Shown: positions 274 through 63,153, numbered from the stretch's first letter. The stretch is 64,000 bases of DNA from Isurus oxyrinchus (GCA_026770705.1 JANJGN010000034.1:3906001-3970000), one strand, 5' to 3'. The notes: a model not told the origin generated them from the letters alone. Numbers and translations are program-made.

Positions 274-303
274 CATTAGCGCATTGCAGTTTTTGGGAGA
301 GTG
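274..303 (-). CDS. 30-nt micro-exon, (A)LSQKLQCAN
   Basis: ttttactaaaag|CACTCTCCCAAAAACTGCAATGCGCTAATG|gtgaga; KLQ..N end resembles 43144-43179. Confidence 0.5.
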
Positions 304-714
304 CTTTTAGTAAAATCATTGCCATGCTTCTTATTGACAATTGCTACTAGGCTTCAAAAGCATTCGATTGTCTGCAAAACACTTTGAGACTGCAGGTTGT
401 CAAGGAAACTACAGTATTAGTGCAATGAGTATTTCTTTTTTTTTACTCCCGTTTGTCTTGCTTTTTCGCAGAGGGAGCAATACATGTTCTTGTAATAACG
501 GCTGTCTGTCCTTCAGTGTAGCTATTTAAAGTGAATATTCTGCTTTCCTTGGAAGTATATTTTAATTATACTACAATTTTGCCTTCAATTTCTGTTGGTT
601 TTGTTTAGTTAATAAATATAACATTTACAGATGTCCTTATTGCATTTTCGAACGAACATTTGACGAAACAGGAATCATGCACTGTAATAATGCTTATGTC
701 AGTTGTCCTGTAAT

Positions 715-1065
715 ACGTTGGTCTGGAAAAGTGACAGAGTAACAGCCCTGAGCTCATATCCCACCATGGTGGTTTTCGATGCAAATTCAATTAAGTAAAT
801 GAAACGTTGTAACATGCAATATAGTAATGGTGACCATGACCAACCAGGCTCTGCGAAAAACTCAAGTGCTTCTGCAAAATACTTTATGGAAGGAAACTTG
901 GGTATAACTTTTTGTAATTTCGTTGAATGCTAACTGGGCCGCAAAATAGTCCAGCCAATCTTTGATTCTATTCCAGGAAGCAGATAACTAACATCTCCAA
1001 CAGAGCAAATAAAGATGGATAACAATTAACAGCCTCCCAGCTACACACACTTCGTGGGCATGAGT
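715..1065 (+). mobile_element. Decayed SINE-like repeat
   Basis: atcccaccatgg...aattcaatta...aatggtgaccatga...ggaaggaaa layout recalled from shark SINEs. Confidence 0.4.
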
Positions 1066-1199
1066 AAAAATATGATAAAATATACCCCATTACCCATGTG
1101 TTCAATGAAGTACTGGCTATGCCAATTATCATTGTGTAGTGGCATTATAGGATATTATGTTTCACGCTGAATGCTCTGCCATAAGCTTTATGCAACATT

Positions 1200-1835
1200 T
1201 ACTTATTGCCAAGGCATTAAGAAGGCTAATTTAATTTTATCCATTAAAATGAGTGTAATTGAATACAAAAATAAGCATGATATGATTCCATTAAGCACGA
1301 CATTTCGAATTTTCTTTGCAATATTGGACTCATTATTTAAGGAACAATGTAAAGCTTTGGAAACAGTTCAGACGAAGTTTACAAGAGTGATACCTTGAAT
1401 GAGTGGATATCTTATATTGAGCGGAAGGGTAGACTGGGCTTGTTTCTACAGGAGTTCGGAAGAGTGAGTGGCAGCTTACTTAAACTGTGTCAGGTCTTGA
1501 ACTATGTGCAACACGTGGAGAGGCTAATTATATTTCCCAGTGTGAATGAGTCCCGAAGAAGGGGGCACTGCTTTAAATTTATGGATTGACCCCTTTAGAA
1601 CACAGATAAGGTCTTCACATTCTTCCGCCTATCAGCCTCAGTGGAGGCGAAATCATTGAGTGTTTTTGAAATGGATGGTTAATAGATTATTGTTAGGGAA
1701 GGGAATCAAAGGTAATCCGCAACAGATGGGAATGTGGAAGTCTAAACACAAATGGATCAATCATGATCTTATTGAAGGGCGGAGCAGGATCGATGACTCT
1801 AATTGTTTACTTCAGTTCCTCTTACGTATGTATAT
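1200..1835 (+). mobile_element. CR1 LINE 3' fragment
   Basis: ALETVQTKFTRVIP (LERVQRRFTRMIP-like) and CR1-type 3'UTR. Confidence 0.75.
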
Positions 1836-1960
1836 ATGCTTATATGCCTACTGCTATATTCAGACAATCTGAAAACTGCATCTGCAGTATTTTGCGTTTA
1901 AGCGAGGAGAGGATGAAAAAAAAAAAGTGGAGATTACGTAGGTTTGAGATGTTTCATCAC

Positions 1961-2446
1961 TGTTTGGGGGAAATAAAGGAATATAGTAATTATTTTGGGG
2001 AATATAAGGGTACAGGAAGAACTTATAGAAAGGGGATGAATTTCATCAAATCTCCAAGCACATCGGCAGTTAAAGGTTACCAGATGAACCTTGCACAACC
2101 TTAGAGGTGTGCAAACAACATGAAGGCCTTGGTAGTCAGAGGATGGCAATAACAACAGATAGGAGAAGAACAGATGGTCTCAGCCTGGGTGGAAACAAAT
2201 AGGGATGTACCTGTTACCAGATATGTTTTGTATTGTAAACCTATATGTTGGCGAGATCCGAATCTGGAAACTGTTCTTGTATGTGAACAATAATTTATTG
2301 ATATGTCGAAAACTTCTAGTTAAGCAGAGTACTGTCTCAAGCTGTATTCAGATGGTGCTCTGCTTGTAGTTTTTCGTAAAAGCGATCATAACATGTATAT
2401 GAGTCTCCTATGGTCCATCCATCCAAGACACCAGGTCAATTTCTCA
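1961..2446 (+). repeat. 5' LTR
   Basis: Starts tgtttgggggaaataaa, ends tttctca; colinear with 8687-9211 (e.g. aaatagggatgtac..taccaga.atgttttgta). Confidence 0.9.
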
Positions 2447-2465
2447 TAGGTGGCAGGATACTTGG
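2447..2465 (+). promoter_or_regulatory. Degenerate primer-binding site, possibly tRNA-Leu
   Basis: taggtggcagga directly after LTR; resembles TGGTGGCAG, the complement of a tRNA-Leu 3' end; remainder diverged. Confidence 0.4.
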
Positions 2466-2803
2466 ATTGGATCCACGGGACAGCTCTGCAAAGTGGGTTG
2501 AGTATATTCATTTGCCTCTCGTAGTTAGTGCTGCAAGCTTACCCGAGAACTGCGTGGTCAAGTAGCAAAGAATCAGGAGGAGGATTCAGGACAGGAGACA
2601 GGAAGTACCAGGGATACGTGGCTGTGCCGTGCACGCGGTCTAGCAGGGCCAAAGCCACGCGGGAATTCCAGAACCATTACCAAAGAAAGGAGGCAGAGCT
2701 GTGCTGATGGGTTACGGTTGAAATATAACATTAGCCGAAGCCGCACAGGTAGGTCAGACCCCATGTAACCGCAGATAGGGCAAGAAATTAAGTTGTCAGG
2801 ACC

Positions 2804-4010
2804 ATGCGAACATATCATGCAGAGATAGTAACAAATAAGAACAGAGTACCGTCAGAAAAAAAGAACAGTGCTATTGAACTCGAATGGGGAACCGTGGACC
2901 CCATTCCGAGGTTCATAGCGGAACAGCAGTCAAAATGTACCACTAAAAATCCAGATGGAGGGCTCGAACACAAAGGGAACCCCAACAGAACAAAAACAGT
3001 GGTGGATAGAGCAAAGAAAAGGACAAGGAAAAGAAAGGGATGATGGTTATTATCACAATGCACGTACAATTGTGCAGATGAGTTAAAAATAAATTCCAGT
3101 CACTAAGAGAGAGAGAGAGACAAAGTCAGCTTTAGCACAGATCAGAGCAGTGGCGGCAGCAGCCTGTAGTAACGCTGATTAAGGCGAGGAAAGCTCCAAA
3201 GGATAAACCTATGAAGGAGCTGAGGCATGTCCACCCTCATATGAACCAACCACCCCCCTGTGCCTGTTGAATTCCATGGACCCTATTGCAATAACCATTA
3301 GGAAAAGTAAAGTCAGGAAAGGCGAATTAAAACCCGAAGGGAGAAAGTCAGCTGATCAATAGGTGGAGGATGAGGAGATTAAAGGGATATGGAGAAAGTT
3401 AAGCACGTTCCATTCAGTCCGGCGGAGAAGCAGATTTTGCTTAAAGAACTGCTGAGACTCAAAACTCTGCATAACAATCCAGCTTTTTGAACTAACCTGC
3501 GGAAAATGCAAGATTTCCATGCAATGCTCCGCTTTGATACCTATATACTGGTGAAAGCTAAATGGCCACGGGATATCTGGGGAATGTTATCACTTCAGTT
3601 TAGAAGTGATGACAGGGCGAATCCTTAGGAGGTCCCAGATCAGTAGAAGGTGACAGCCCTACACAGAGTCTTTGATGACACAGGCTAAGAATTCTTGGTA
3701 GAGTGACAGACGGATTGGGGGCGTATAAGTAGTAGACAAGAGGAGTGAGTCCGCAATGGACTATGCAGAACGAATGTGGAAGACTTCTGTACAGTTTCCA
3801 GTACAAATGCATCCTGTGCAGGATGACGAGATGTTCCTGAATATATGGAAGGATGAGTGGGATCGGAAAAGTATGCTACAATAGCTGCCTGTGCAGAAGA
3901 GAGAGAGGGAGAGAGAGAAAGAGAAATGGAGAAAAGTTGCACCCGTAGGGGCGTTAAAAGCACTGGTGGGGAAATTGGAACATTCGCCACTCAGGTTGTC
4001 CCTCGATGTA
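2804..4010 (+). pseudogene. gag: gag remnant
   Basis: Position after leader; basic N-terminal stretch; PPSY (PPxY late-domain-like) at about 3230-3245; eroded zinc-knuckle-like GKL.H...CP at about 3965-4000; many stops and frameshifts. Confidence 0.55.
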
Positions 4011-4899
4011 GATCCTTCAAAATCCCTTAATTTCCCCCACTGCTATTGGAAGATTCGTTTAGAATATGACAGTTTTAAGTCGTTAACCAGGGTTAGATGA
4101 ACGAAAATTTGTACCACCCCTTTGCAGACCAGTACCTGCAGCTTCCACGCTGATTGTGATCGTCACATAGGAGTTGCATAATCTCATACGAGTTAGTATT
4201 CTTTAATTCTGAGGGCAGAAATTACCTGAAGTTCAAGGGATTCTAGGCAAGCCAAAAGAAATAAACATACGGTCTAAGTAGTTCCAATGGATAAAAAGGT
4301 GTTTCATTTGAAGAGATGGCTGAAATATGAAAAGCACTGTAATTAGAATTTTGGACAATCCTGAGATGTGAAGTGCATTGTAATTTAACAGGTTACCTTC
4401 GAATCAATAGGATGCTATCTACGATAAAGAACTTGTAGATAAACAGACGGGAATTATAGCTTGGATACAGTCGATACACATAAGAAAGAGATAGCTTTAA
4501 TTTTGCTAGGTTAAATTACAGTTGTTACGAAATTTAAAATTCGAGGTTTGGCTCCTGATAATTTTACAAAAGGGAATTATTATTTTAAAATTTTTGTCAA
4601 AAACTGACACAAATCCAAATGCTGCAAGCTGTTGTATTTGGAAGTATCTTCCCAAAATATGAAGCCAAGCTCAAGACCTTGACAAAGTTTGGCAGAAATC
4701 CAATTTTTGGCCGAGATAATGAATCTGTGTCAATACTAAAATAAATGGTTCAGGTACAATTTAATTGCTTACTTTTGACATAATCAAATGTTGTTTAAGA
4801 CGAAGATAAGGAAGCAAGCATGTCATTGCAGATTTCTGTTTTTAATACCGTTATGAGAATGTTTTTATTATTTTAAAGCCTCTCCAGGCATCCTGAACA

Positions 4900-6150
4900 A
4901 GATAAGATAGTTGTTGTTCCATGTGCAAGATGGCATGAGGCAACTGGGAGAAAGAGTTAGGGAAAGAGGATAAAATATACAAACTTATTTAAGGGAAGTG
5001 AATTTGATAATCTCACCATCAACTGAGACATTGGAAATGCACAAGCGGAGATAATAAATGGCGTAGAGAAAGAGATCCTGGTTGAAAATAGAGAACCTGA
5101 GCTCAAGAGAATCTTAGGATGATCATGGACAGAAAAGAAAAAAATAAAGGTGATACTCTGTGGAATCTGTAGTTCAGGCAATTGAAAGGAAAGGAAAAAT
5201 AAGACATAACAACAATTGCCAAATGATGGATACAGGTAAAGGGAAAGCTGGAAATAAAGCAAATAGATGTATTACTGATTGTATGAACCTGCCTTCGAGA
5301 TTCAAAAAGCAAGACCACAGGATTAACACCATGATGGCAGACAGAGGAAAGTGGCTTACAGAGAGAACCGTCACTGGAAGGAAATATATCCAGCCATTGA
5401 AAGATAAGATAAGGTGTACTGAGGAGTTGTGTTGGCAGTTTAAGGAATTGAGTACTGAAGTGGGGAAGCAGCAGGAAAGAGTAGACTGGAAGAAGTGAAG
5501 GGTGAATATCCAGAAGGATTCAGATCAGGGAACACTTTTCACAGGAAGAGTCATTAAATAAACGTATAAATTGAAATTTAAACAGAAATTCCACATACCC
5601 TACCAGCCACAGAGCTCAGAGAGGGCCGAAATGATGAACTGAACTCTAAAAAGAAAATCAGTCACAAAAGCAATTCAAGAGATAGGGAACAGACAAAATT
5701 CGAATGCACCTTAGGGCTACACAAAGCTGGGCGGTCCGATTCACCCCATTTGAAATAATGACAAGAAGAGTAATACAGTTAGCTAAGGGGAGATAACAGC
5801 TATGGGAGATATACATCCACTAAAAGGAAATATGCAAGACAATGTGAGGGAAACAAGTTAGCAACTGTATGAGTTAAGGAGGAAGTTATAGACCGACGGA
5901 AGGATAAGAATATGGAAACAGCCAAATACAAAGAGCAACTATGGACCTCCCCCAACACCCGCCACAACCACCACCCCACCCCCCCACCCCCCCCCCCCCC
6001 CCCCACGCCTCCACGTGGGGAATAAGGTGATGGCCAAAATGAGTGTGGAGGAAACAGGCATGGGCAGTACGAGGTAATTAAATTCTGGATGCAAGCGCAC
6101 ATGTAGATATGGGAATGGGGTTTAATTGGCACTTTTAACAATATATGAGA
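4900..6150 (+). pseudogene. pol: pol remnant: RNase H end plus integrase
   Basis: GNAQAE at about 5034; DSDQGTLFTG at about 5517-5546; FHIPYQPQSSERAEMMN*TLK at about 5589-5651 (integrase DDE core). Confidence 0.85.
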
Positions 6151-6199
6151 ATTGACCAAGCGGTAACTCGGAGAACAAGAACCGATGTTAAGGTTTCCA

Positions 6200-8414
6200 C
6201 AGATGTACCAGCCTCGTCTTGGGCGGATCACAACTGGCAACAAGGTCGGGGATCATCACTGCTCATCCAGCACTGCAGGAGGAAATTTGGTACAGCACCG
6301 ACAGTACCGAATATGACATGAAATGGGGCATGATAAATGTAGCAGTAGGAGAACATGTGCATTCATATTGTAGTAGGAATTCGCTTCATTTCGGGCATGG
6401 CAGGCCCGCCACTACTCAGCCAACTTTCACATCTACTTTCACAGTCCGAATAGAGATAACTGCAACCTGTCAGAACATACCAACTAATGCATCTTGTCCG
6501 ACTACGCCTCCAGGAACAACAAATGGTTTGGTACTGGTTAATCAGAAGTTTTGCAGAATAATGTGAACCAAAAGCTGGCACCTGTAGTCTTGAACATATC
6601 CGGAATGACCCCGCCCCAGTGGTGCTCAACCCAAATTCGGGAACTATATACAGCTCTAATGGCCCAGCTGATGATTGAAGCAACTTAGTTGAACAGCGAG
6701 ATGCGATCAGGCCTGGGAAAGAACTTTGTTAAGTGCAGCCTCATAAATGATGATGGCGCTATGATACTCAATAAAGTGACATCAGTTGTTAATTCAGGAC
6801 CTGGCAACTATTGACCAGAAGGTCCATTCCCTGATCTTGATGCTTAAGTAGATTCAACAGCAGTGACAGGGAATTCATAACACACAATTAACAACAGACC
6901 AGAACATGACAAGCTTAATCCAAAACCTGGCTATGATGCTCGAAAGGCATGTGGGGTCAAATCAAAAAGCGTATTGAAATAGGGGAAAATATTTCAGATG
7001 AAGCAAGCAGAAAAGATGTTTGCAGCACCTAAGGATCTTGGGCACTGGAACAAGCCCGAGAGAGTTTAATAGAGATTAATGAGGGCTTAGTTCCTTTATG
7101 GGTGACTACTGAGCATTTATTGAATAATTCACGACATAGGATCATGACTTGACCGGTAGCCAGCTCAGAGGTTTACAATGTATGTATATAATGAATGTAT
7201 AGTGAATGGTAATATGCTAATATGCATTGTATTAGTAATACCTGTCATACCTATGTTAATACCCGGCAGCACATTATATAGAAGAGAAAATATTGGTGTT
7301 ATACGGGAGGATTACTATATTATGTATCATGATATAAGACCAGATGCAGTAGACATTGAAGGAAATACAGTTAGTCCCACTTAGAAGAGTGTACAATAGA
7401 GGTTACCGCAGTAGTATGCACACCTGGCGTATGAGGAAAAGTGGATTTAAAGTGAAAGACACTCTTTGGTCTGCCCGAAATTTGTTGGTTTTCCAGCGCA
7501 AATATCTGTCCTCGACCGAGTGTTGCAGATTGGCACATTCCAAGGTCCAGGACTATGTGCAGAGGGACACAGTTAAGCTTGGGGCAGCCGCCACAAAGGC
7601 TCAATGGGGAAGGGTCGCTGCCTAACACCTTTCTCCCACAGTGCATTGAGGGGCTTGGAACTGTAAAGAGCCCTTCAGGCTGTAGAGCTTAAAATAAATG
7701 TCTGCCAATAATTGCAATATTCATTGTTTGTACACCTTGTGATTCATGTTGTAAAAGTTGAACCTGGTTGTATTTTTGCAATGGTGATTTTGAAATGGTT
7801 CTAAATGTTTTTGAATATTTATGAATAAAGTATATTTTTGCAAAAAAGAAAAAAAAAGTACAATTGAAAGTATACGGGTGGCAAAAGAACCGACCCATAT
7901 TGCATATGCAGGGAATGTGAGATATTGTATCACCACGTGGGAGGAAATAATCCAGTATGGAGGTAACCCGATTTGCCCTTTCCAAAATCAATCAGTGTGC
8001 CTACACCCACAGGTGGCAGCAAGGGTAGGGAAGGTGGAACTCGTCGAAATATACAACAGAGGAACGACTACTATTCAGGTCAAGGACAGCCTTCAAGACA
8101 AGCTGACACAGTATTTGAACCCGTTCTCCTATGAAGTTCCCTTATTAGCAGAGCACCTCACCGCCACTGGGAGACAGGCTCAGCAGATATACAGAACTTA
8201 CTATAAGCTGCAGCAACAGATTAGAGCCTTAAAGACGGATATTGAACAAGTACATTCTTGCTCATGGTGGGAGGACCTGTTGAACTGGGGCTCAAACGTA
8301 GAGATAAACCCCGGGATTCGGATTATCTCCCATGCCCTAGTTAGGCTTCAACTGATATTGATTATCTATCTAATATATATGATTCATCGCAGCTGGAAGT
8401 CTCAGAAAAGGTGA
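6200..8414 (+). pseudogene. env: env-like remnant interrupted by a LINE insertion
   Basis: Cys-containing ectodomain pieces (IPVIP..LYRRENIG; EECT..VVCTP; YCITT..ICP..VCL), heptad YYKLQQQIRALKTDIEQV, SWWEDLLNWG, hydrophobic TM ALVRLQLILIIYLIYMI, basic tail. Confidence 0.7.
7452..7857 (+). mobile_element. 5'-truncated Tx1/L1-type LINE 3' end inserted in env
   Basis: KDTLWSARNLLVFQ...CCRLAHSKVQDYV..DTVKLGAAATKAQWGR C-terminus, 3'UTR, AATAAA at 7824, poly(A). Confidence 0.8.
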
Positions 8415-8674
8415 CGCCTTGGGTGGGGGGGGGGGGGGGGGGGGGGTGTATGTCAGGGGATGCTTTGACAAGTGGAACAAGAATCCGGTAAGGCAGAGGT
8501 TCTGATTAAAGGTCCGGATCATGGAGCTGGTCTGACCAGTGCCCCTAACATTTACATGCCTAAATTGGATACCTGGCCAGTATAAATGATCAATGGGTGT
8601 AGCACATAAGATTGGGGGGGGGGGGTAATGGACAATACCACTATAGTTGGTTACTTTGGGCTAAGCCAAGGGCC

Positions 8675-8685
8675 AAAAGGGGAGA
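8675..8685 (+). promoter_or_regulatory. Polypurine tract
   Basis: aaaaggggaga just upstream of the 3' LTR TGT. Confidence 0.8.
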
Positions 8686-8686
8686 C

Positions 8687-9211
8687 TGTTAGAGGGAAAT
8701 AAACTGTTACATTAATTATTAGGGGAATACAGCGGTTACAGTATGAACTTATTGAAAGGGAATGAATTACTTAATATTTTCATGCGCTTTGGGAGTTAAA
8801 GTTTGCCAGGAGACCCTTGCCCAGCCTTAATGGCCTATAAACAACAGAAAGCCTTTGGAGCCAGACTGTAGTCCGGGGATGGTAATAACAACTAAGATGA
8901 AGTGTGCACTTCAACAGATAGGGAAAGAATGGATGGTAAGGCCTCTGCCTGGGGGAAAAGAAATAGGGATGTACTTAGTACCAGACATGTTTTGTAATAT
9001 AAATCTGTATGTTGACGAGATTGGAATTTGGAAACTGCTTTTGTAACTGACCAATCATGTAAAAATATGTTTAATGCTTGCAGTTTAGCAGGAGTACCGT
9101 TTCAAGGGGTACTGAGATGGTGCACTCCTTCCAATTGATTGAATAAATGATCTTAACCTGAACCTGTGTCTGCTGTGGTCCGTTCATCAAAGAAACCACA
9201 TCAATCACACA
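8687..9211 (+). repeat. 3' LTR
   Basis: tgttagagggaaataaa ... tcaatcacaca; contains AATAAA at about 9142; homologous to 1961-2446. Confidence 0.9.
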
Positions 9212-9469
9212 TGTGTGAACTAACGCTGTGTTTTTGGAAAGTATCACTGAGATGCTACATATATAGATGAAAAATATTAGGGAGCAAGGATATATACTGG
9301 GCAGTAGCATGGGTTAAGTATGGGGAAACAGGAGGGAACGACAGTGCATATAATGATGTATTAGATCAATAAAAAACAATCAGATAAAGTGACTTATGCG
9401 TTCATCCAGATGATGTGGATGGTGTTCTTATTCTCTCTGTCTTTTCAATAGAGATCGATTACACAGGCA

Positions 9470-11045
9470 TTCTATTGCACGAGGAGAATTATCAAATGTT
9501 AGATACAGTAAGCATAGGATAGAGGAAACGTTGCAGGGGCTGACATGTTTGACGGTACATAAAACACCAGAACTGGGTGTATTGTATCCAAGGCGTTTAC
9601 TGGAAGCAAGGAATATGGCAAAGGATGCCCTGCAAAAACTTTTTAATTCTACCTGGGTACAGGCGAGATAAAAAAAAAAAAAGTTTAGTAGTCTGTGACA
9701 GTTGTACCATTGTTTAAAAGTGGTGCAAGCGTAACACCAAATAATTACAGTGTGTAATTCTGGCTTCGATAGAGGACAAATTATTGGAATCCATCTTTAG
9801 CGATAGGATTAAACTGTTAGTAAGAAACGCTAGGATCAATCAGGGCTGGTAATTAATTTGTTTAATGAAAAGTCGTGACTTATTAAAATAATTGGATTTA
9901 TCAAAGAAAAGTTTCAAGCAGCATTGAACAGGGTAGAGTGGTGGATGTGCTGTGTATGCATTTTAGTTAGCCATTTGGAATGTTCACACACCGCAACCTG
10001 GTCAGAAAACTAAAAACCATGGGGTCTGGGGGAAGGGGGTGAGTTGGATCAACCATTGGTCAGTGATGGAGGTTTTAGCGAATGGAATGCAGTGTGTTGC
10101 CGCAGGGATTTGTGCTAGTTGCCTTTCTGCTTGTGGTATACATTAGTTATTTGGGCTTTAGTTTTGGGAACATGATTTGCATATTTGCAGATGACACACA
10201 ACTCTGAGTAGTTAATAATGGATATGATATTAATGGTTTGTTTGAGCAAGTAATGAAGTGGCCACCGGATTCACTCCGGAGCAGGGTGAAGTTGTGCATT
10301 TTACAAGGGCATGCAAAGTACTGAAATACTGAATAAACGGGAGAATATTGATTGTGGTAGAGAATGTGAAAGACATTGGATTGCATATCCACTGTTCCCT
10401 GAAGATGGACTGGTTTGTAGATATTGTGGTTAATGGAACATATAGAATGCTTTCCTCTCTTGCACCAAGTATGTTTTACAAAAGCATTAATGTAATTATA
10501 CACCCTGTACAAAACGCAGGTTAGGCTACACTTGGGTGTTTGTACAATATTTTGCTCAACACATTAAGAAGGACTGGGGAGAGTACAAAAGAAGTGCACA
10601 ACAATGTTTCTAAGGCAGGGAATTTGCAGCTAAGGGAAAGTTAAGCTGGCTAGGAATATTTTCCTTAGAACGTAGGAGGCTGAGATTTGAAATGTTTGAG
10701 TTTTCGAAAATTATGAAGGTTCGAGAGAAGATCAGTGGATAATACGTGTTTCATCCAGCGGAGAGGAAAATTACCAGAGGGCACAGAATTGAGGTGATTG
10801 GTCGACATTTTAGACGGAATATTAGGAAAAATGATTTATCTCAGAGAGTGGAAGGTGCCTGGAATACATTGCACGGAATGTTGTTTGAAGCAGAAAGCAT
10901 GAACTAATTTAAAATGTTACTGACTCTGCACAAGAAGTGCTGAACTCTGCAAAGCTACGAACCAGGTGCAGGAAATCGAAAGTAGATTTTTCCCACCCGT
11001 CACAGAAACGATGTTTGGAATGCCCTCTTTCTGTGTCTTAAGTAT
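9470..11045 (+). mobile_element. CR1 LINE RT/3' fragment
   Basis: Degenerate VVPLFK, VDV.., KFADDT-like (ICIFADDTQL) motifs and 3' end. Confidence 0.75.
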
Positions 11046-13074: not shown

Positions 13075-13101
13075 CCTCGTAAGCCAAGAATGCGATATGT
13101 T
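13075..13101 (-). CDS. Possible 27-nt micro-exon, (E)HIAFLAYE
   Basis: aaattgcag|AACATATCGCATTCTTGGCTTACGAGG|gtggtt; weak donor, 72-nt intron to previous exon. Confidence 0.35.
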
Positions 13102-13173
13102 CTGCAATTTATTCACGCCAAATCCATAGACTATTGATGAAGCTGACGTATCTTGATATATATGTGTGCTTAC

Positions 13174-13200
13174 CTGCTGAATTTTCGAGTGACGTTCCTC
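13174..13200 (-). CDS. 27-nt micro-exon, (G)GTSLENSA, linker class
   Basis: ttgcttgtttctaacag|GAGGAACGTCACTCGAAAATTCAGCAG|gtaagc. Confidence 0.7.
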
Positions 13201-51369: not shown

Positions 51370-51396
51370 CTGTGGCAGGATAAAATGACAAACCAG
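51370..51396 (-). CDS. Possible 27-nt micro-exon, (A)GLSFYPAT
   Basis: ccaactccag|CTGGTTTGTCATTTTATCCTGCCACAG|gtaac; right length and phase but no clear class similarity. Confidence 0.3.
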
Positions 51397-53059
51397 CTGG
51401 AGTTGGCAAAGCGAGTTCAGCAAGTCTTTAGCACCTTTTTCCTGAGCTTCATTTGGGACCAACCTTAACTTGGATAGTTAGTCAGCAAGCTCCTGGAACC
51501 GCTTGCAGCTTTTGTGCGATGCAGCTTCCAAAGCTATATTTGAAGAAGATGGCTAGACTAGTTTTAGCACCGTTCTTCTGCATTGCGTAGTGGCCAGCAA
51601 GTTTGTCCGCATAGGCAATCAATCAAATCATACTTAATATCAATATCTCCCCAAGTCCCGCTTCGCCAATGAAAAGCATTAACAATTTATACAATGCCTC
51701 CACATCAGAAAGCATTTAAACGATCTTGAGCGGCGCATTATAAAGGCAAATATGCCACAGAGGCACAAAGAGTTAAGTTTTCAGCAGCATTGTAAAGCAG
51801 GGAAGACAATCTGAGATGTGGAACTATGCAAATGAAAGAAAAACAGATCCCAAGCCCAGAAAAGGTTAATGAGGTACAATCAATGATGACGTAACTAAAA
51901 TCAGGGTTGTTCCACAAATCATAATGAGAAGATTGCAGTTTCCCTGCAATGCTGCAGAAGTAGGAAGCAGTGAAGCACTGGAGGGATTTGAGAAGGAAAA
52001 ATGAAAATTACAATGAAGCAATGCTTTGCTTCACTGTTAGCCATTAAGGCCATTGAGAATCAGGGGCATTGGTACATTGAATTTATTGTGAGCTGGAAAA
52101 ACAACAGCCCATTTTTAGATTGTTTCAACATAGCAAATTGTAAGAATTGATAGGCAAATGGTGTGTGTCACTGTAACAGTTGAGCTTAGTCAAGAACAGA
52201 GTCAGACCCAGTGTAATGAATTTGAAAATAGTCTGCATTCATGATGGCATGGGTCTGCAGTTGGAAGCTCAATTGAGATTCATATATACCAGCAATTAAT
52301 TAATTTGGCTGCATCAACATGGACATGAAATGGATCACAAGCTGCTTGTATTATTCCTCATTTTCTCCTTATTTAAAGTTGCATGTGTCTGGACCAAAGT
52401 GTCGCTGCTATAGCTCACAAGATTCAAAAGTTAGAAACATTTCTGGAAAGTGGCAAATTGATTACAGACAAAAGAGATCATAACATGACAGAAAGTCACG
52501 TTAATTTTGAGGAGGATGAATGTGGGCCAAAAGTAGTGTCTTAAAATTACGTAAAACAATTACAACGCCTTTGACACTATGTGGGCAGCAGTGGACGGGC
52601 AGGATAGTTTAAAGGAACTGTGATTTAGAAGCAGTAGTCGATATTTAATGAGGTTTATCAGCAAAGATTTATTACATTTAGAAAAAAGTACACAGTGTCT
52701 CCCTGAGCAATATGCAGCAAGCTTGTCGAGGAATGCAATTAAAATATGGTCTCAAATAATAGAAAAACGAAATGTGCTGTGAATTGCTTTTGTGAGGCAA
52801 CGGATTGGTTTTAAAATGCGCCATAATACAGAGTAATATATTAAAATATTAGAAAAAGTAGCTAGTAATATCAAACAGACAGTAGAAATCTTCTCAATGT
52901 AATTAAAAATAACATACTTTTAAAATAGTTGTTGCATCTTTTGATCATGAGACTGTGCAATTCATAATGGTAAAAAAATAGATGTCGTAGGCGTTTTAAC
53001 AAAAATTATGCAGCGACATTCACATAGAATATTAAGGAAAACCTTCTCAAGTATACCAA

Positions 53060-53640
53060 GAATTTAAGGGATATTAGGGAGGAAGGGGATAAAAAAAAAT
53101 CAACATCACTAGGGAAAAAATTGCAAGGAATACAAATGAGAATCAGTTCTTGCTTGACTCGAAGAAATGACAGCATTGATCCCAGACTTGTAAAATAATT
53201 GACTACTAAGATATTTCTCTATTCTTTGCAAGCTTGAAAATTTCCAATATTCTGATTGGAGAACGGCAAATGTAACGCCGATATGCAAGAAACAAATAAG
53301 CAAACGAAAATTTGGAAAAAGAAACAGGAGGCCAGTTAGCTGAAAATTTATTTAAATGGGGAATTTCTGGAGTCCATCATTAATTAAACTATATCAGGCA
53401 TTAATTAAATCATTATACAACTAGACAAATTGCTTCAAAAGGGAATCATACAAGACAAATATATTATAGGAATTATGGGAAGATATTCCAAGCAGGGTGC
53501 ATAAAGGAAAACCCACAGATATAGTTTCAATGGATTTCCAAACTATATTCGATAAGGTGTCACGTAAAGCAACATACAAGTTATTTCTGCTCAGATGATA
53601 AATGATCTGGGATAAAGAACAATCTAAGTACCGTGAAATG
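53060..53640 (+). mobile_element. CR1 RT fragment
   Basis: DWRTANVTPICKK; MDFQTIFDKVS. Confidence 0.75.
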
Positions 53641-55397
53641 AAGTGATTGTTTTTTTAAGCATGGCAAACCTTAACTAATGCAGCACCTTTGGGAACAATG
53701 TTGTCCGTTCAAATGTTTACGATCTCTGTTAATGAGATGGGTGAAGAGTGATGTGATTCGTTGTGAAATCTTCTCAAAATACGAAATGTGATGAAAGCAC
53801 GTTATTAGAAACATACAAATGGCTGCCCATTGGTGTAGGTGTGTGGAGTGAGTGGGGTAACAGCAGATAGGATACACTGGTAGAATGGCAGGTTGTCCAC
53901 TGCTGCAGGAATAATAGAAACACATACAGCTATCTGAATAAGGCTAGAGGTGGCATTATAGCTCTGCAACCTCCTCGTGTCCACTTCACAAAGCACTTTC
54001 CTACCTACCTTGCGTCATCTGCAAATTAAGCTACAATACCATCGCTTCAATCATCTCAGTCATTCATGTAAATTGTAAAATGTTGAGGCCCTAGCACAGA
54101 ATCCTGCGGGTCTCCACTCATCATAACCTGTTAATCAAAAAGACTTGTATGCATACACTTTGCTTTCTGCCAGTCACCGATTCTTCTATCGTCACCATGA
54201 GCAATTAATTTTCAAAATAACCTTCCAAGTGGAACCTTCTATAATACCTTACTGGAAATCCAAATATAGTGTGCCTAAAGACTCCCCTTCATCCACTGCG
54301 CATGTTCTTACTGAAAAATTAAACAATAACATGTCTAATCAGGATTTCCCTTTCACATGACTATAATGCCTCCTCCTGATTATGATGAGATTTCCTAATT
54401 GCTCAGATATAACATCATTAATGATTGATTCTAACAACTTCCAAATGAAAAACGCCAGGGTAACTAGTCTATTTATTCTTATTTTCTGCATCCCTCTCGC
54501 TTTGAGTTGAATGATTAGAATTGTTACTTTCCAGCGTGTTGGGCAATTTATGGAATAGGGTGAATATTGTAAAATTATCGCCATCACTTCTCCTCTTTCA
54601 TTAGGCAGATCCTTTAAAACCATATGATGTAATCTGTCAGGTAGCGACACATTGCCATCCCGCAGCTCTCTCAGTTTGTTGAGTAACTTTTCCCTATTGA
54701 TTTCAATTTTACCAAACTGCTCTCTCCCTTTCACCTCCTGATTTGCAGCTATTAGTGGAATGGGTTTTGTATCCTTTACATTGAACATGGAAGCAAAATA
54801 CTTGTTCATTTCTTTGCTCATTTGCTTATTAACTAGTGGTAACTACCCAAGGTCACTACATAGAGGAATTGACTTATTCTTATGCTTGTTAAGTATCTGT
54901 AGAAACCTTTGTTACCCATTTTTAACTTTTCTAGCTATTTTCCTCTCATACTCTGATTTAGGTCTCCTGATTTAAATCTCAGTCGTTCTCTGCCGTTTTT
55001 TATATTCTGACCAAGCATTGGCTCTGCAACTCCTTTTCGTTCAGTTACATTATTTTCCTTAAGACTGATGTTTTCCTTAACTTCTTTAGTTAACCATGGA
55101 TGATGGGACGGAACCTGAGAATTTTTCTTTACAGTGGGAAAACACTTGTAATGACTAATCTAAAATATCCCGTCATATGTCTGGCGCTGCTTCTCTCTTG
55201 ATCTATCATCTAGTCTAGTATCCATGTTAACTTCAACTAACTGAACATACTTGTCCACGTAGTTGTCCATATTTATGTTTAGGATACTACTCTTAGACCC
55301 ACTGTTCGCCCTGTCAAACAGGAAGTAATATTTAAAACAAAAACAGAAATACCTGGAGAAACTCAGCAGGTCTGGCAGCATTGGCGCAGAAGAAAAG

Positions 55398-55436
55398 AGT
55401 TGAAGTTTCGAGTCCTCAAGACCCTTCAGCAGAACT
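55398..55436 (-). ncRNA. Hammerhead-like motif in pLTR
   Basis: agtt CTGCTGA a gggtc ttgag gactc GAAAC TTC aact. Confidence 0.5.
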
Positions 55437-55829
55437 GGGTGATTCCAAGGAGCAGGGCGAAATATAAGCTGTTTTAAGGTGGTGGTGGTGGTGGGGGCGG
55501 GGGGGGGGGGGGGGGGCGCAGGTGGTGGGGGAGGGCAGTTTGCTGGGGGGAGAAAAGTGAAGGGGGGTGGAGCAGATAAACAAAGTATGCAAATGACAAA
55601 AGAACACAGAGGTGAAGAAGTTGGTGATATTATCTAAACGAATTGTGCCAATTCAGAAAGGATGGTAGGACACACAAGGTAGAGCTCTAGTGGGGGTGGG
55701 GGGCATAAAGGACTTAAAAATAATGGAACTTGGTGGGAAAAGAGAAATCTATATAAATTAATGGAAAAATAGAACAAAAGGAAGGGGGAAGAAACAGAAA
55801 AGGGGGTGGTGATGGAGGATGGAGTTCAA

Positions 55830-58245
55830 GATTTAAAGTTGTTGAATTCAATATTCAGTCTGGAAGGCTGTACAATGCTTGGTCGGAAGAAGAGGTGCTG
55901 TTCCTCCAGTTTGCGTTGGGCTTCAGTATGGCAATGCAGTAAAACAAGGAAAGACATGTGGGCAAGAGAGCAGGGTGGGGTCTTAAAATGGCAAAAGACA
56001 GGGAGGTTTGGGTCATTCTTGCCGACAGACCGCAGGTGTTCTTCAAAGCGGTCGCCCAGTTTACGTTTGGTCTATATAATGTAGAGGAGACCGCATTGGG
56101 AGCAATAAATGCAGTAGACTAAGTTGGGGGAAATACAAGTGATATGCTGCTTCATTTGAAAGGAGAGTTTGAGCCCTTGTTCGGTGAGGAGAGAGTAAGT
56201 GGAGGGTCAGGTGTTGCAACTTTTGCGTGGGCATGGGAAGTTGCCATAGATGGGGATTGAGGAGTAAGGGGTGATGGAGGAGTGGACCAGGGTGCCCCGG
56301 ATGGAAGGATTCCTACAGAATGCCGCCCGGGAGGGTTAAGGGAAGATGTGTTTGTGGGTGGCATCTTGCTGGATTTGCTGGAAAGGGCAGAGGATGATCC
56401 TATGAATGTGGAGGCTGGTGGGGTGATAGGTGAGGGCAAGGGGGACACTATCATGTTTCTGGGAAGGAGGAGAAGGCATGAGGGTGAATGTGTGGGAGAT
56501 GGGCCGGAAATGGGTGAGGGCCCTGTCAACGACCGTGGGTGGAAAACCTTAGTTAAGGAAGAAGGAGGAAATGTCAAAGGAACTGTTTTTGAAGGTAAAA
56601 TCATCAAAACAGATGCAACGGAGGCGATGGAACTGAGAGAATGGGATGGAGTCCTTAGAGGAAACGGCGTGTGAGGAGTTGTAGTTGAGGTAGCATTGCG
56701 AGTTGGTAGGCTTTTAATAGATATTGGTGGACAGTCTATCACCAGATAATGAGACAGAGAGTTCAAGGAAGGGAAGGGAAGTGTCAGAGATGGACATGTG
56801 AACATGATGGAGGAGTGGAGATTGGAAGCAAAATTAATAAATTTTTCCAAGTCCCGACGGGAACATGAAGCAGCACCAAAGTAATCATCGCTGTACTGGA
56901 GAAAGAATTGTGGAAGAGAGCTGGAGTAGGACTAGAAAAAGGAATGTTCCACATACCCTATAAAGAGACAGGCAAAGCTGGAGCCCATGCGTGTACCCAT
57001 AGCCACAAGTTTTATTTGGAGCAAGTAAGAAGAGTTGAAGGAGAAATTGTTCATTGTGAAAACAAGTTCAGCCTGACGGTGGAGAGTTGTGGTGGATGGG
57101 GTTTGTTCGGGCCTCTGTTCGAGGAAGAAGCTAAGTGCAATCAGACCATCATGGTCGGGGATGGAGGTGTAGAGTGATTGGTCGTCCATGGTGAAGAGAA
57201 AGCAGTTGGTGCTAGGGAACTGGAAAATGTTGACGTGACGTAAGATGTCAGAGGAATCACAGATGTAGCTGGGAAGGGAATGGACAAGGGGAGAGAGAAG
57301 GGAGTCAAGATAATGAGAAATGAGTTCCCTGGGGCAGGAGCAAGCTGACATGATCGACCTATCAGAAGAGTTATGTTTGTTGAATTTTGGTAGGAGGTTG
57401 AAGCAGGCCGTCTGAGGTTGGGCGACTATCATGTTTAAAGCTGTGGGAGGAAGATCTCCAGAGGAGATGAGATAAGTGACAGTCCTGGAAAAAATTGCTT
57501 GATGTTCTGTGGTGAGGTGATGGTCCTGGGAGAGGTAGGAGGATGTGTCCGTGGGTTGACGCTCAGCCTCAGCGAGGTAGAGGTCAGTGCGCCAGACAAC
57601 AACAGCACAACCCATGTCAGTGGGTTTGATGACAATGTTGGGGTTGGACCTCAGAGAATGGAGTGCAGTAAGTTCATAGAGAGACACTTTAGAATGGCTG
57701 AGAGGAGCAGAGAAATTGAGATGACTAATGTCGCACTGACAGTTCTCAATGAAGTGATCAAGAGAAGGTAAGAATCCAGGTGGAGGGGTCCTGGTGGAGG
57801 GAGAATATTGGAGATGTGTAAAAGGATCCATGGAACGAGGAGAGGACTCCTGCCCAAGTAAGTGAGCCTGGCGATGAAGACGGCGGATGAAGAGTTCAGC
57901 ATCCTGCCGAGCCCGACATTCATTGAGATGAGGGCATAAGGATATGAACCTAAGTCCTTTGGTGAGCACTGAACGTTCAGTTTCAGAGAGTGGAACGTCA
58001 AGTGGTATAGTGAATAAATGGCTGGGGCTGGGATTGGAAGTTGAGATGGGGACTGAGGGACAGGCAGGGGTAGAGGGTCCTACGTAGATGTTGGTGTTGA
58101 TGAATTGTTGGAGCTTGCGTTCCTTAGCACTTGAGAGAAAGAGAACAAGTTTCTTGTTGAGACGTCGGATGAGATGAAGAATAAAATGAAGGGTATGGCG
58201 GTGCTGCTGAAGGGAGAGGTCGAGTGTGTTCATATGCCGGTGCAT
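55830..58245 (-). pseudogene. Penelope reverse transcriptase plus GIY-YIG endonuclease (frameshifted)
   Basis: FTMDDQSLYTSIP, VAMGTRMG, FLQYSDDYFGAA (about 56870-56905); CIYCSQCGLLYI..TKRKLGDRFEEH. Confidence 0.9.
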
Positions 58246-58684
58246 GGTACTGAGTGTGGAACTCAGAATGTGACGGGAACAGCAATCCGAGAAACGTTTT
58301 ATGTCGTAGATGTACCTTTAATCCTGGGTGGGTATGAAACGAGAGGGATGGAATTTCAGTTGAAATCCACGTGGGGTATGTCAGAGACGGAGACATTCAC
58401 TGAGAATGGAGATATGGCTGTGAAAGGGGGTTTTAGTAGACACCTTGTCAAACACCAGGAGAGAAATGGAAAGCAATGAAGGTGAACAAGGCGAAAGAGA
58501 GATACAGAAATCTTGACGCAGAGACGATCAAAACTTATTCAAGGTAGGCATTTCTTGAAGAGCAGTGGCATTCAATTAAACAAAGAAATAAAAACAAAAA
58601 ACTGCGGATGCTGGAAATCCAAAACAAAAACAGAATTACCTGGAAAAACACAGCAGCTCAGGCAGCATCAGCGGAGAAGAAAAG

Positions 58685-58723
58685 ATTTGACGTTTCTAAA
58701 CCTCATGACCTTTCAGCAGAACT
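58685..58723 (-). ncRNA. Degenerate hammerhead-like motif in upstream pLTR
   Basis: agtt CTGCTGA aaggtc atgag gttta GAAAC GTC aaat. Confidence 0.4.
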
Positions 58724-61700
58724 GGGTGAATCCAATGAGAGGGGTGAAATATAAGCTGGTTATGGTGAGTGTGTGTGTGTGTGTGTGTGTGTGAGTGGGT
58801 GGTGGTGGGGGCGGGGTTGGGTGGGTGGAGGGGATGGTGTGGTTATAGGGATAAGCAAGCAGTGATAGGAGCAGATAAACAAAATATGCCAATGACAAAA
58901 GAACAAAAGAACGCAGAGGTGTTGAAGTTGGTCTTATTATGTAAACGAATGTGCTAATTAAGAATGGATGGTAGGGCACTCAAGGTAGAGCTCCAGTGGG
59001 GATGGAGGGCATAAAAGACTTAAAAATAATGGAAATTGGTGGGAAAAGAGAAATCTATATAAATTAATGAAAAAAAAAGCAAAAGGAAGGGGGAAGAAAC
59101 AGAAAAGGGGTGGTGATGGAGGAGGGAGTTCAAGATCTAAAGTTGTTGAATTCAATATTCATTCTGGAAAGCTGTAAAGTGCCAAGTTGGAAGAGGAGGT
59201 GCTGTTCCTCCAGTTTGCGTTGGGATTTACTAGAACAGTGCAGCAAGCCAAGGACAAACATGTGGGCAAGAGAGCAGGGTGGAGTGTTAAAATGGCAAGC
59301 AACAGGGATGTTTGAATCATTCTTGCAGACAGACCGCAGGTTTTCTGCAAGGCAGTCGCCCAGTTTACGTTTGGTCTCTCCAATGTGGAGGTGAGCACAT
59401 TGGGAGCAACGAATGCAGCAGACTAATTTGGGGCAAATGCAAGTGAAATGCTGTTTCACTTGAAAGGAGTGTTTGGGCCCTTGGACGGGGGAGAGAGAGG
59501 AAGTGAAGGGGCAGGTGTTGCATCTTTTGCGTGGCCATCGGGAGGTGCCATTGGTGGGGGTTGAGGAGTAGGGAGTTATGGAAGAGTGGACCAGGGTGTG
59601 CCGTATTGCTGGATGGAACGATCCCTACAGAATGCCACCGGGGGTGGGGGGGGGGGGGGGGTGGTGAAGGGGTGGTAGGGGGTGGGGGAGGGGGCAGGGA
59701 GGTGGGGTTTGAAGGGAAGGTCTGTTTGGTGGTTGCATCAAGCTTATTCAAGCTTAATATTCAAGTAATATCAGTAATATTCAAGCTTATTGTTGTCTCT
59801 GCTATCTAAGGCAACCTTTGCTCTGCGGCCATTAATTAATCCTGTCGCGTTACCAATTCCAAGTTGAACGTTACCTGCAGAACATGCTGCTCTGAGGATC
59901 TATCTCCAAATATTTATAAGAGCTCTGCAGCCAGGCTCCGACTAACAATCTTATTTTGCTGTTCCATTTGTAGATATAAAATCGCATATGAATATTTCCG
60001 CCCCTTTATCACAATCAGACAATTTTTCCTCTTGAATACTTTGCCATACAGTTTGCCAGATGTTAGGAGAACAGTTAGAGAGCACTCCCACGAGTGATTT
60101 TTCCCCAAGTATGATTAGCCTCCGATTCTACTTCCTTATCTCCTGCCTTGAGATCATCTCTAACTATTGCAGTAATGCGGTCTTTGATTAACGGTTCTAC
60201 CCCTCTAACTTTAGCTAATGACTTATTTTTCTTGAATGCCGTGTCCCTGAATCTTCAGGACTCAGTCATTGTTGTCCAGCAGCCACTACTCCTTATCTGA
60301 TATGACATAATATCTTTTCTTTTCAATGTACACCCTTAATTTGTTGTAAAAGCTGTGTGCATTCAGATACAGAACCTTCAGTTTTGTATTTTTGATACAT
60401 TTGTAATATTTAGTTTTGATTGTTAATATATTATTTTAAGTTATCTCTCTGGTCCTTCCAGCCATTCTCTGACCGTCATTTTCCATTATTACGATTTTGC
60501 TGTCCTGACTTGAGTCTACTCTTTGGATTGCTACCTCTGCCATGTCTTGATTGCTCACCCAGTTTGTTTACTTTACAGCCCTCTCAACTTCTCTAATAAT
60601 GTCATTTGCGAGGACACTCTTCCCATCACTGTTCAGATATAAACAAAATCAGTGGTACAACCCACATATCCCCCAGTACTGGTGGAATTTCCTAAAAAGC
60701 CTGAATCCAATTCTTCTACATCGGTCTTTGAGTCACGCATTCGCTTCTCTAATCTTGTTTGCCATATAAAAAATTGTACCTGTTTCACGGAATAATGAAG
60801 AGCTTATTATCTTTCAGGTACTGTTTCTTAACTTGGTAACATGCTCCACATAAAAAAAAACTTTGCAGAGCTTCGTTCTTTGATCTAGCTTTTTCGTTGG
60901 AGATTAAATGTTCCATGAAAACTGGATCCTTCCTCTCCCACTGCATTTCCTCTTCAGCCCTAAGCAGATGCCTCGAACTCTGGCAGGGGGAGGCAACAAA
61001 GCCACCTGTAGTCGTGCCCTTCGCTGGAGAAAAACGTCTCATTCGCCCTCAGTTTAATAGACAGTACTAATACTTGGTCCCTCCATTAGAATGGCTTCCT
61101 TTACCGCGGTACCATGGCAAGTCAGCTCATTCATCTTGCCGGCCTCGCTTTCACCAACATAGTTGCAAGCACATTAAACTGATTTCATAATTTTAAATGT
61201 TGAGGATTATCCATGACTTTCAGCTCGGTCGCTTTACAAGATTCACTGAGGGCCAAATCCTCCTCTCCATCAATGCTCAAGAAAACAAATGGGCCTAATC
61301 GTAAAGTTGTGTCACTCTTCTCCAAAACAGTGACCAGGTTTTTCTCCCCCTCCCTAATGTTGCACAGTGAATGAAGTTCGGCTTCTAGATAAATATTCCT
61401 GATCCGGTTTTCATCCAGCTGCTTAGATTTCCATCAGGATCTATGATTGTCATAGATTGAGTTCGCTTTCAATACCTCCCAATCCCACTTATGCAACTTG
61501 CCAGCTCTGCAGTCATTCTAACTTATTTTATTTAATAAATTTATTTATTTAGTTTAATTATTTCTGCCAATATAGAACAATATAACTTAGTTTTTGAATG
61601 AATGTACCATTCATAATTAAATGTAATACGCCTCTTAACTACACAGGTGTGTGCTTGAAATATTTGTATTAATCATGTTACTTTAATTCATTTTAATTTG

Positions 61701-62169
61701 AACGTTTTCTCTTCATTTAGAATTTTTAGATTGTTGCATTTATAGATTTATATATAGATCCAATGTATAGATACAATTGAATTCGCCATCCTAAGCCCCA
61801 TTTCACAAACTTTTCTTTGGACTTACAAGTCAGTCAAATTTTTCACGTGACGTCACATTTGCCTCCGTACAACCATCACCCACCTCACAAATACCAAACA
61901 ATTCAGCCTCGCAGCGGATGAAATTGTGAACTAGTGCGACCTTCTGCTCCCACTCCTCTGCTTCAGATTCCCAGCAAGGTTGGCCGCTCTGCACACCTGC
62001 GTGTTTATTTGTGGGCGCTCCGCAGCTCCAGACTGTTACCCGGATTTGTGGTGCGACATCCAGCAACGTAGGCTAACCTTAAATATCATTACTAGGCTCT
62101 CCTCGACGCCCAACTGCCTCCCGCAGCTGCACTCATACTACAAGCTCGGTAGTGATGATGAAATTTATT

Positions 62170-62640
62170 GAAAGAGGGAGAGAATATAAAAGTAAGGATA
62201 TCCTGAGTCAAACAGCGTTGTATAAAGCGTTCGTGTTTATGTATCAGGAAGAATTTGCTTGCATTCGGAACAATTCACGGGACTTTCGTTAGGCTGATTT
62301 CTGGGCTAAAGGGGTTGTCTTTTGAGGAATGCGTGAGAAGGTTGGGCCTCTACTCATTAGAGTTTTGGAGATTGAGAGGTGATCTTTTGAAAGAGGAAAT
62401 ATTCCGAGGGACGTTACAAGGTAGGCACTTAGAGAATATTTTCCTCATGAGGGAATCCGCATCAAGTGTGAATGGTGTAAAGCATGAAGGCGCTTATTTT
62501 TTTTAAAACTGGTATGGAGAAATCTGTGCTATCCAAGGTCAATTTGTCTTTGTGGTTCTAATTCCGGGAGAATAGTGGATGCGGGGCCAATGTATATACT
62601 CAAGGTTTAATCGAGAGGCTGTTTATCACCAAAGGAACCC
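62170..62640 (+). mobile_element. CR1 3' fragment
   Basis: FVRLISGLKGLSFEECVRRLGLYSLEFWRLRGDL. Confidence 0.85.
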
Positions 62641-63126
62641 TGCGGGAACTTGGAAAGATGGCACTCATTTCAGAGAGGATATTTTTGAATATCGCTCTAA
62701 TTTTTGTTGATTTGATTAACGAAATCAGGCTTATATTCAAGTAGGATAAAGTTAGAGCCAAAAGAGAGTTACCCCCGCCCTCATTGGCAAAAACACACGC
62801 ACGGCATTTGCGTTGGCTTAAATTTTCCCTGGGATTGCTTATCTTGAGCAATGTTGTATTCATGCCAACAATAGCCGCACTCACTTAGCCACTTGAGTTC
62901 ATCGATTTTGTACATTTTTTTGAAAAAGGCCATAATGAAATTAGAAGGTGTCTGGCCCTCATGGAACCTAATCTATGAAGCGTTAAGTTGCTTATCGTCT
63001 GTCAGTGTCTTTGCTAACCCTACAGAAGAAACCTTCTGTCACTTTGCAGTTAATCCACAATAGAAAATATGCGTGACATTTTGCCATTCAGAAATTAGGT
63101 GATAAGTTGAAACATGATTGTTTTAC

Positions 63127-63153
63127 CTGCTCTTGCTCCAAGGATCCAGTCGT
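63127..63153 (-). CDS. 27-nt micro-exon, (D)DWILGARA, linker class
   Basis: atccttgcag|ACGACTGGATCCTTGGAGCAAGAGCAG|gtaaaac; same ttgcag/gtaaaac flanks as 19182-19208. Confidence 0.6.

Follow-up and report, generated by a model that had tools for sequence, protein, structure and literature searches.

Guinea-pig enterophilins combine a long heptad rod with a B30.2 domain and are not known to have immunoglobulin (Ig) or RING domains. For an enterophilin, an interaction with SNX1 has been described (PMC13749957). In butyrophilins, heptad repeats precede a B30.2 domain (PMC4046983, PMC12841164). The coiled-coil tail of chicken BG molecules is encoded by 13-36 exons of 21 or 24 nucleotides (nt) (PMC4046983), and schistosome micro-exon genes (MEGs) have most of their coding sequence in tiny symmetric exons and a high ratio of nonsynonymous to synonymous change (dN/dS; PMC4350168). 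Here, we analyzed a stretch of 64,000 nt, called the window throughout (G000:C34:3906001-3970000 in the 4.98-Gb genome of Isurus oxyrinchus; coordinates outside 1-64000 are the C34 position minus 3,906,000). An earlier reading, made from the bare sequence and referred to as the sequence-only reading, had proposed that it hides a cartilaginous-fish micro-exon gene whose joined exons read as an amphipathic helix, and this proposal is now supported by strand, length and frame bias and by the heptad register. With a probability of roughly 0.7, the window contains 17 of about 134 candidate micro-exons, which would form the 5' part of one giant coiled-coil-B30.2 gene with a probably cytosolic product. 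The analysis directly established segments of exon type with a bias in strand, length and frame, a heptad register that holds across junctions, the terminal B30.2 exon and a clade of seven genes, and no Ig or RING/B-box exon was found nearby.

The locus resembles butyrophilins in that heptad exons precede a B30.2 exon, but no IgV, IgC or transmembrane (TM) exon was found in the stretches searched, the heptads number about 190 instead of a few, and the B30.2 domain belongs to a separate clade. Chicken BG likewise has many tiny tail exons, and a head-to-head shark paralogue even uses exons of 21 nt; BG genes, however, contain signal, Ig-V and TM exons and end in a 3' untranslated region, whereas the shark gene would have about 134 exons of mostly 27 or 36 nt and a B30.2 end, with no Ig or TM exon detected in the same searches. 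TRIM proteins (RBCC-B30.2) also join a coiled coil to a C-terminal B30.2 domain, but RING and B-box were not found in the searched stretches of the shark gene, and a control TRIM locus, with 1 candidate in 36 kb, was without a micro-exon array. As in schistosome MEGs, most of the coding sequence lies in very small symmetric exons (87% in exons of at most 36 nt); MEGs, in contrast, invariably carry a signal peptide and seem confined to flatworms, whereas the searches at the shark locus found no signal peptide, exon order encodes register and a globular B30.2 domain is present. Enterophilins would be the nearest architecture, and their mammalian lineage probably points to an independent origin. 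Both features of the cartilaginous-fish coiled-coil-B30.2 clade described below, a B30.2 domain within the clade and an upstream micro-exon rod, are present at the locus. We take this to be a real, unusual gene architecture, apparently a variant of the coiled-coil-B30.2 kind.

Micro-exons in the window

The best run of the sequence-only reading, from 26514 to 13174, was reproduced: its nine exons all lie on the minus strand between an ag acceptor and a gt donor, end in G, measure 27 or 36 nt and give the translations described in phase 1. Two exons inside the run (23583 and 19411) had been omitted. Splice sites were scored with matrices of approximate frequencies, one strict and one loosened after the strict result was known. 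The strict matrix missed most exons of the run and returned 3 minus-strand versus 0 plus-strand matches of 27 nt. With the loosened matrix, the minus-strand excess at 27 nt that the earlier reading had put forward for testing was borne out (16 minus versus 1 plus; mean 1.95 and maximum 6 in 40 local shuffles), and stricter cut-offs left minus/plus counts of 12/0, 11/0 and 9/0.

Altogether, 17 candidate exons were listed in the window, 12 with a score of at least 8 in a trained model described below and 5 added from the generic scan. For seven, homologues of the same length, situated farther along the array or in the next paralogue, outperform every plus-strand control. The 5' limit proposed earlier, at 63153, retains moderate support; the 3' limit, a 30-nt segment at 303-274, has a poor acceptor and a score of 1.9, within plus-strand noise, and is unsupported. 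The features of the window are as follows.

1..64000 (-): whole window, inside the inferred gene; the array continues past both edges
63127..63153 (-): 27-nt phase-1 candidate exon, the 5'-most in the window; score 8.2, no clear array homologue, moderate support
43144..43179 (-): 36-nt helix exon; score 9.3, best array homologue beats 29/29 controls
42890..42916 (-): 27-nt exon that an alternative inner acceptor, 6 nt in, would shorten to 21 nt; from the generic scan
33782..33808 (-): 27-nt candidate exon with cysteine; score 6.0, weaker
33208..33234 (-): 27-nt linker-type exon (glycine, proline, threonine, asparagine, serine); strong splice sites
29457..29483 (-): 27-nt linker-type candidate exon; generic score 8.4, trained 5.5, weaker
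26488..26514 (-): 27-nt exon, module type A; homologue at -24270 beats 22/22 controls
23557..23583 (-): 27-nt exon, module type B, omitted earlier; weak splice score, homologue at -33223 with 67% nt identity beats 22/22 controls
21371..21406 (-): 36-nt helix exon, type C; in the reproduced run, trained model, homologue comparison
20805..20831 (-): 27-nt exon, type D (core cysteine); matches an exon in the downstream paralogue at 70% nt identity
20660..20686 (-): 27-nt exon, type E (cysteine); in the reproduced run, trained model
19385..19411 (-): 27-nt linker-type candidate exon, omitted earlier; weak acceptor
19182..19208 (-): 27-nt exon, type B-like; in the reproduced run, trained model
14981..15016 (-): 36-nt helix exon, type C; in the reproduced run, trained model, homologue comparison
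14254..14280 (-): 27-nt exon, type D; matches the exon at -62741 with 74% nt identity
14106..14132 (-): 27-nt exon, type E; in the reproduced run
13174..13200 (-): 27-nt linker-type exon, the 3'-most supported in the window; generic splice score 16.3, the window maximum

A second in-frame acceptor lies 6 nt into several exons (27/21 or 36/30 nt), at 42916 and 42910 in the window and at C21:89672382, 89684586, 89687650 and 89689471. Such inner acceptors would permit register changes of two amino acids (aa).

The array and its terminal B30.2 exon

We read 500 kb downstream and 200 kb upstream of the window. The array keeps its strand and phase from the window to -427,581, with 115 more candidate exons to the left (C34 3,905,451 down to 3,478,419) and two micro-exons to the right (68961-68935 and 67907-67872). 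At -431,364 follows a terminal exon (G000:C34:3474636-3474116) with a phase-1 acceptor, 172 aa and a stop codon, which matches Pfam SPRY with E 2.9e-18 and is the sole B30.2 exon detected in the array span. Of the exon types for which the sequence-only reading had recommended inspecting the flanks, B30.2 was found in this way, 431 kb downstream, but no Ig-V or TM exon was.

Between -431k and +86k, minus-strand candidates outnumber plus-strand ones by 66 versus 2 at 27 nt and by 45 versus 8 at 36 nt. The enrichment anticipated for 36 nt is thus seen over this span, but within the window alone neither 36 nt (4 minus versus 3 plus) nor 21 nt (2 versus 4) is enriched. Of the 111 unfiltered minus-strand candidates of 27 or 36 nt, 4 contain a stop when read in phase 1, compared with 76 for phase 0 and 48 for phase 2. 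A splice model trained on 105 of the array candidates gave 123 minus versus 3 plus candidates at a score of at least 10, and a half-trained version recovered 40 of 52 held-out exons, with 0 plus-strand matches of 27 or 36 nt. The working list comprises 134 candidate phase-1 exons (4,023 nt, 1,341 aa), all symmetric and 121 of them 27 or 36 nt long, separated by a median gap of 2.3 kb; it probably lacks some exons and contains a few false ones. At a paralogue on C21, exons chosen by the C34-trained model align in order with RefSeq proteins of catshark and electric ray, which independently supports the exon caller. Two 3' exons of the C34 array match a catshark orthologue model in order, weakly.

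With 430 kb between the window and the B30.2 exon, a segmented window module unlike the 36+27 repeat of the 3' part and database models that are mostly short, the window exons might instead belong to a separate coiled-coil gene lacking B30.2, or the array might be split into several transcription units. Yet one strand and phase persist throughout at the small median gap, exon types are common along the array, the next paralogue opens, directly behind the B30.2 exon, with modules resembling those of the window, and a relative of 1,697 aa is present as a database model; we regard such a split as very unlikely.

At C34 ~3,567,000 (-338,971 to -339,093; L044), an alternative upstream acceptor would give a 36-nt exon a strongly hydrophobic stretch of 29 aa. 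This extension is probably a chance intron read-back.

Coiled-coil register and exon order

Translated in genomic order, the 134 exons have a hydrophobic period of 3.52, reached by none of 1000 shuffles of exon order; the corresponding counts were 0 of 1000 for the most regular block and 2 of 1000 for the middle block. In the 3' part of the array, 58 of 89 transitions alternate between 36 and 27 nt, and each 36+27-nt pair encodes 21 aa, exactly three heptads. In the 12-mer, hydrophobic residues occupy positions 2, 5, 9 and 12, and in the 9-mer position 4, which yields a 3-4 heptad pattern over the 21 aa, and position 5 is a cysteine in 19 of 35 exons. The pattern in the window is segmented, with helix blocks of about 39 aa, each in a single register that runs on over the junctions, and with intervening linker exons, in which glycine, serine, threonine and asparagine abound, that shift the register. 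We consider a coiled-coil-B30.2 architecture likely.

The sequence-only reading had also suggested that splicing could vary the product combinatorially, an idea with partial support. Annotated isoforms of short paralogues, which are predicted models, do differ by internal blocks of 6, 7 or 9 aa, but the genomic order of the exons preserves the heptad register. A MEG-like diversity generator, with free exon skipping and a large pool of variants, would be in line with the isoforms lacking these blocks, the symmetric phase 1 of every listed exon, the share of coding length in exons of at most 36 nt, the dN/dS near 0.9 reported below, and a cluster of long SPRY proteins that bears the name 'isoform X51' in the Atlas (score 0.79, no more than a lead). 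It is at odds with a register carried by exon order, as seen in the shuffles and the 36/27 alternation, and with the register shift that a skip of 9 or 12 aa causes; in a skip simulation, single skips gave 4.71 versus 5.0 for paired skips and 5.28 for the full array, a slight separation and a weak test. On balance, free combinatorial skipping seems rather unlikely, and since exon order keeps the heptad register, we argue that ordered inclusion of the exons gives the main product.

Searches at the 5' end

A local hidden Markov model profile of the RING-B-box region, built from 46 TRIM N-termini, reached a best E of 0.094 in 764 kb of C34, compared with 1.5e-51 at a control locus. In the same 764 kb, the best E was 0.96 for an IgV profile, which found 5 of 8 controls at E <1e-5, and 0.16 for an IgC profile, for which there was no IgC control. 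The IgV control exons came from a genome-wide V-set search, used solely to pick controls, in which 150 of 3,319 candidates were scored. All three profiles were also without a match in 106 kb at the C21 paralogue, and tblastn with 161 proteins over 664 kb revealed no Ig or RING/B-box exon. Hydrophobicity scans gave no credible signal-peptide or TM exon, with the limit that they had no positive control and that the 5' end is unmapped by RNA. Comparison of the 5' regions of three paralogues by blastn returned repeat-like and low-complexity matches only, and a CpG scan showed no island at the presumed 5' end.

Just before its array, the C21 paralogue has a strong 25-nt exon with ATG plus one codon at its end. 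Its tentative counterpart on C34 is a single-copy, 182-nt start-codon exon at 80642-80461 on the minus strand, with the same ending and a short motif common to both. A short methionine start exon without a signal peptide suggests a cytosolic protein, and we consider this location reasonably likely. Models of three relatives start with a hydrophobic stretch, followed in one by basic residues; intron read-back, however, created a fake hydrophobic methionine start at 9 of the 134 exons (9 of the 27 having a methionine) and can therefore explain these starts, and multi-isoform models of three species are without a hydrophobic segment.

These N-termini also bear on a membrane-anchored protein of the butyrophilin or BG type, whose signal, Ig and TM exons were missed and whose rod would be the cytoplasmic tail. 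Its tail logic would be common to BTN and BG (small heptad exons, with B30.2 in BTN), and the divergent paralogue has BG-like 21-nt exons. Against it stand the lack of Ig exons in the 764 kb and in the 106 kb at the C21 paralogue, the lack of an upstream TM exon in the hydrophobicity scan, the read-back and multi-isoform results, and the neighbouring arrays, a head-to-head one that begins about 35 kb upstream of the first micro-exon (68961) and a tail-to-head one that leaves only 43 kb. We judge a membrane anchor to be distinctly unlikely.

A 39-nt candidate at 85854, considered as the end of a signal peptide, was rejected, as it lies among repeat-derived fragments and fails the trained model. 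Similarly, a secreted-protein reading prompted by the hydrophobic start of a skate model was downgraded after the intron read-back control.

A B30.2 clade of cartilaginous fish

Close paralogues of the terminal B30.2 exon number four on C34 (44-45%) and two on C21, and all stand well above a large C21 cluster of other B30.2 exons. With the terminal exon itself, these make seven genes in the Isurus oxyrinchus genome, which form a clade (100/100) with proteins of catshark, skate, electric ray, basking shark and elephant shark; 12 rows, among them RING-type TRIMs and one butyrophilin, fall outside it. The tree, rooted only at its midpoint, does not distinguish a BTN from a TRIM origin. In the sequences compared, this B30.2 clade is so far seen only in cartilaginous fish. 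Among solved structures, TRIM58 is the best match to the B30.2 domain, and similarity to BTN3A1 has an E of 2e-20. The S. canicula protein XP_038668997.1 ('TRIM39-like'), with a 72% identical B30.2 domain, is the likely orthologue; its model of 358 aa apparently covers the last few exons only. Other relatives in the clade include the following.

S. canicula XP_038672306.1: 'TRIM39-like'
N. bancroftii XP_069775384.1: 'zinc-binding protein A33-like'
L. erinacea XP_055510696.1: 'TRIM69-like'
C. milii XP_042192744.1: 'nuclear-pore anchor-like', 1,697 aa, coiled coil plus SPRY

Database names within the clade comprise TRIM39-like, TRIM69-like, TRIM58, A33-like, BTN3A1-like and nuclear-pore anchor-like, mostly given to short automatic predictions. 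The claim that the gene is unannotated therefore needs qualification: relatives do exist as RefSeq predictions, including the 1,697-aa elephant-shark model, but most models are short and misnamed. In the seven clade proteins scanned, which are coiled-coil rods, Pfam assigned nothing but SPRY or PRY apart from sub-threshold matches; RING, B-box and Ig were not among the families assigned. For the first 330 aa of the elephant-shark model, no significant match was obtained in this analysis. Atlas clusters of 1,579 and 1,277 aa contain SPRY in all members (scores 0.92 and 0.90), and a predicted structure of a skate relative combines long helices with a beta-rich C-terminal domain (mean predicted local distance difference test score 76).

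Four micro-exon arrays were seen, of which two read through to their own B30.2 exon and two were assigned by position; in four other clade members, a 27-nt exon lies just upstream of B30.2. Wider homologue searches returned 1 match among 1,481 candidates, 2 among 8,000 and 0 among 7,999 long ones, all weak negatives. No paper on a cartilaginous-fish coiled-coil-B30.2 family was found in searches of open PMC and bioRxiv.

Selection and evidence against a single gene

Under neutrality, simulated at 0.17 changes per site, about 20 of 105 exons should contain stops, and the lowest value over 500 runs was 7; with 4 of 111 seen, stops are rarer than this neutral expectation. Several observations count against a single gene for a cytosolic protein. 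Ten of the 17 window exons have no homologue that beats all controls, and for the 11-exon run of the window, 112 of 1000 shuffles reach the 3.5 period, so that its period is not significant by itself. Inter-exon gaps reach 15-20 kb and hence leave room for an internal gene boundary. At the 5' end, the IgV profile missed 3 of its 8 controls at the cut-off given, the IgC profile had none, the start-exon motif, unique in the stretches searched, was defined after the fact, and the hydrophobic starts of three relatives' models point the other way. Finally, dN/dS is 0.90 for duplicate exon pairs (19 pairs selected by intron similarity, 179 codons), with second positions differing most, so that the residues carry no clear purifying signal. 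Core positions are better conserved than others (31/56 versus 47/123, p=0.036), in a comparison that is partly circular. The evidence for selection looks mixed, with frame and register constrained and most residues not.

A dN/dS of 0.90 between duplicate exons would also fit a decaying pseudogene, an explanation that we weighed together with chance splice-like segments. Both are highly improbable in view of stop avoidance, intact splice sites, preserved register and an intact B30.2 domain with orthologues in other cartilaginous fish.

Proposed mechanism and implications

If the single-gene reading holds, all candidate exons would join one mRNA in genomic order to encode a protein of about 1,500 residues, with translation beginning at the short methionine exon and no signal peptide. 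By analogy with butyrophilin and BG tails, two chains would form a parallel coiled-coil dimer with paired B30.2 heads; at a coiled-coil rise of approximately 0.15 nm per residue, the 1,341 aa listed would give a rod of about 200 nm. Such a dimer could act as a long-reach cytosolic ligand sensor or tether, and the B30.2 domains of TRIM proteins and butyrophilins suggest that it might achieve immune-type recognition by avidity. An immune-sensor role, drawn from this analogy, is tentative and somewhat less than an even bet. The rod may lengthen by tandem duplication of register-preserving cassettes, 36+27 nt for three heptads here and 21 nt for one heptad in the divergent neighbour, and occasional skipping of single exons might add local variants of length or register.

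More speculatively, the locus could represent an overlooked shark family of half-megabase genes in which BTN-style tail exons, without Ig, TM or RING, have increased over a hundredfold in number to give a 'digital' coiled coil. Cassettes would set the length of the rod and its cysteine-cored segments and splicing would retune it, which would create a size-adjustable B30.2 sensor or scaffold without a TRIM or BTN counterpart. We hold this wider picture to be possible, with the odds somewhat against it. If true, annotation would have mostly missed or misnamed very large, exon-rich genes, and shark B30.2 repertoires would have been miscounted as TRIM- or BTN-like. Moreover, a coiled coil would be built and extended exon by exon through register-preserving arithmetic (36+27 or 21 nt), and the family would offer a natural test both of the ordered splicing of more than 100 micro-exons in vertebrate cells and of skipping as a tuner of the reach of an immune-type binding domain.

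Neighbouring arrays and other features

Within the window, an old insertion resembling a long terminal repeat (LTR) element occupies 1959-9217 in a 13.7-kb intron, with direct repeats 6.7 kb apart and 71-78% identical. The LTR-like repeats enclose an open reading frame (ORF) of 199 aa (7815-8414) with no Pfam family above cut-off, which we take to resemble an envelope protein. Around 54,300-59,700 lie pieces of repeated ORFs (461, 259, 164 and 167 aa) without a Pfam match that recur many times in the flanks and are presumably retrotransposon-like.

The head-to-head array occupies the plus strand of C34 from ~4,010,000 (+104,266 to at least +263,868; L005-L010, L082-L091), with 27/36-nt exons first and then mainly 21-nt single-heptad exons. 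It probably ends at the B30.2 exon C34:4,816,515, some 650 kb beyond the part that was read. The tail-to-head paralogue runs on the minus strand from C34 ~3,430,500 downward (L058-L060), about 43 kb past the B30.2 exon, and opens with window-like modules; the next same-strand clade B30.2 was found at C34:2,708,638, which would make this gene about 720 kb long.

On C21, a very large cluster of other B30.2 exons at ~83-118 Mb (G000:C21; L067, L079-L081) accounts for most of the 150 matches scored, and one B30.2 exon of the cluster has a RING-B-box exon 21 kb upstream. Two further B30.2 paralogues on C34, at G000:C34:6,395,824 and 7,496,447 (L062 and L063), are nearly identical, have matching upstream micro-exons and lie 1.1 Mb apart; the pair is a recent large duplication.

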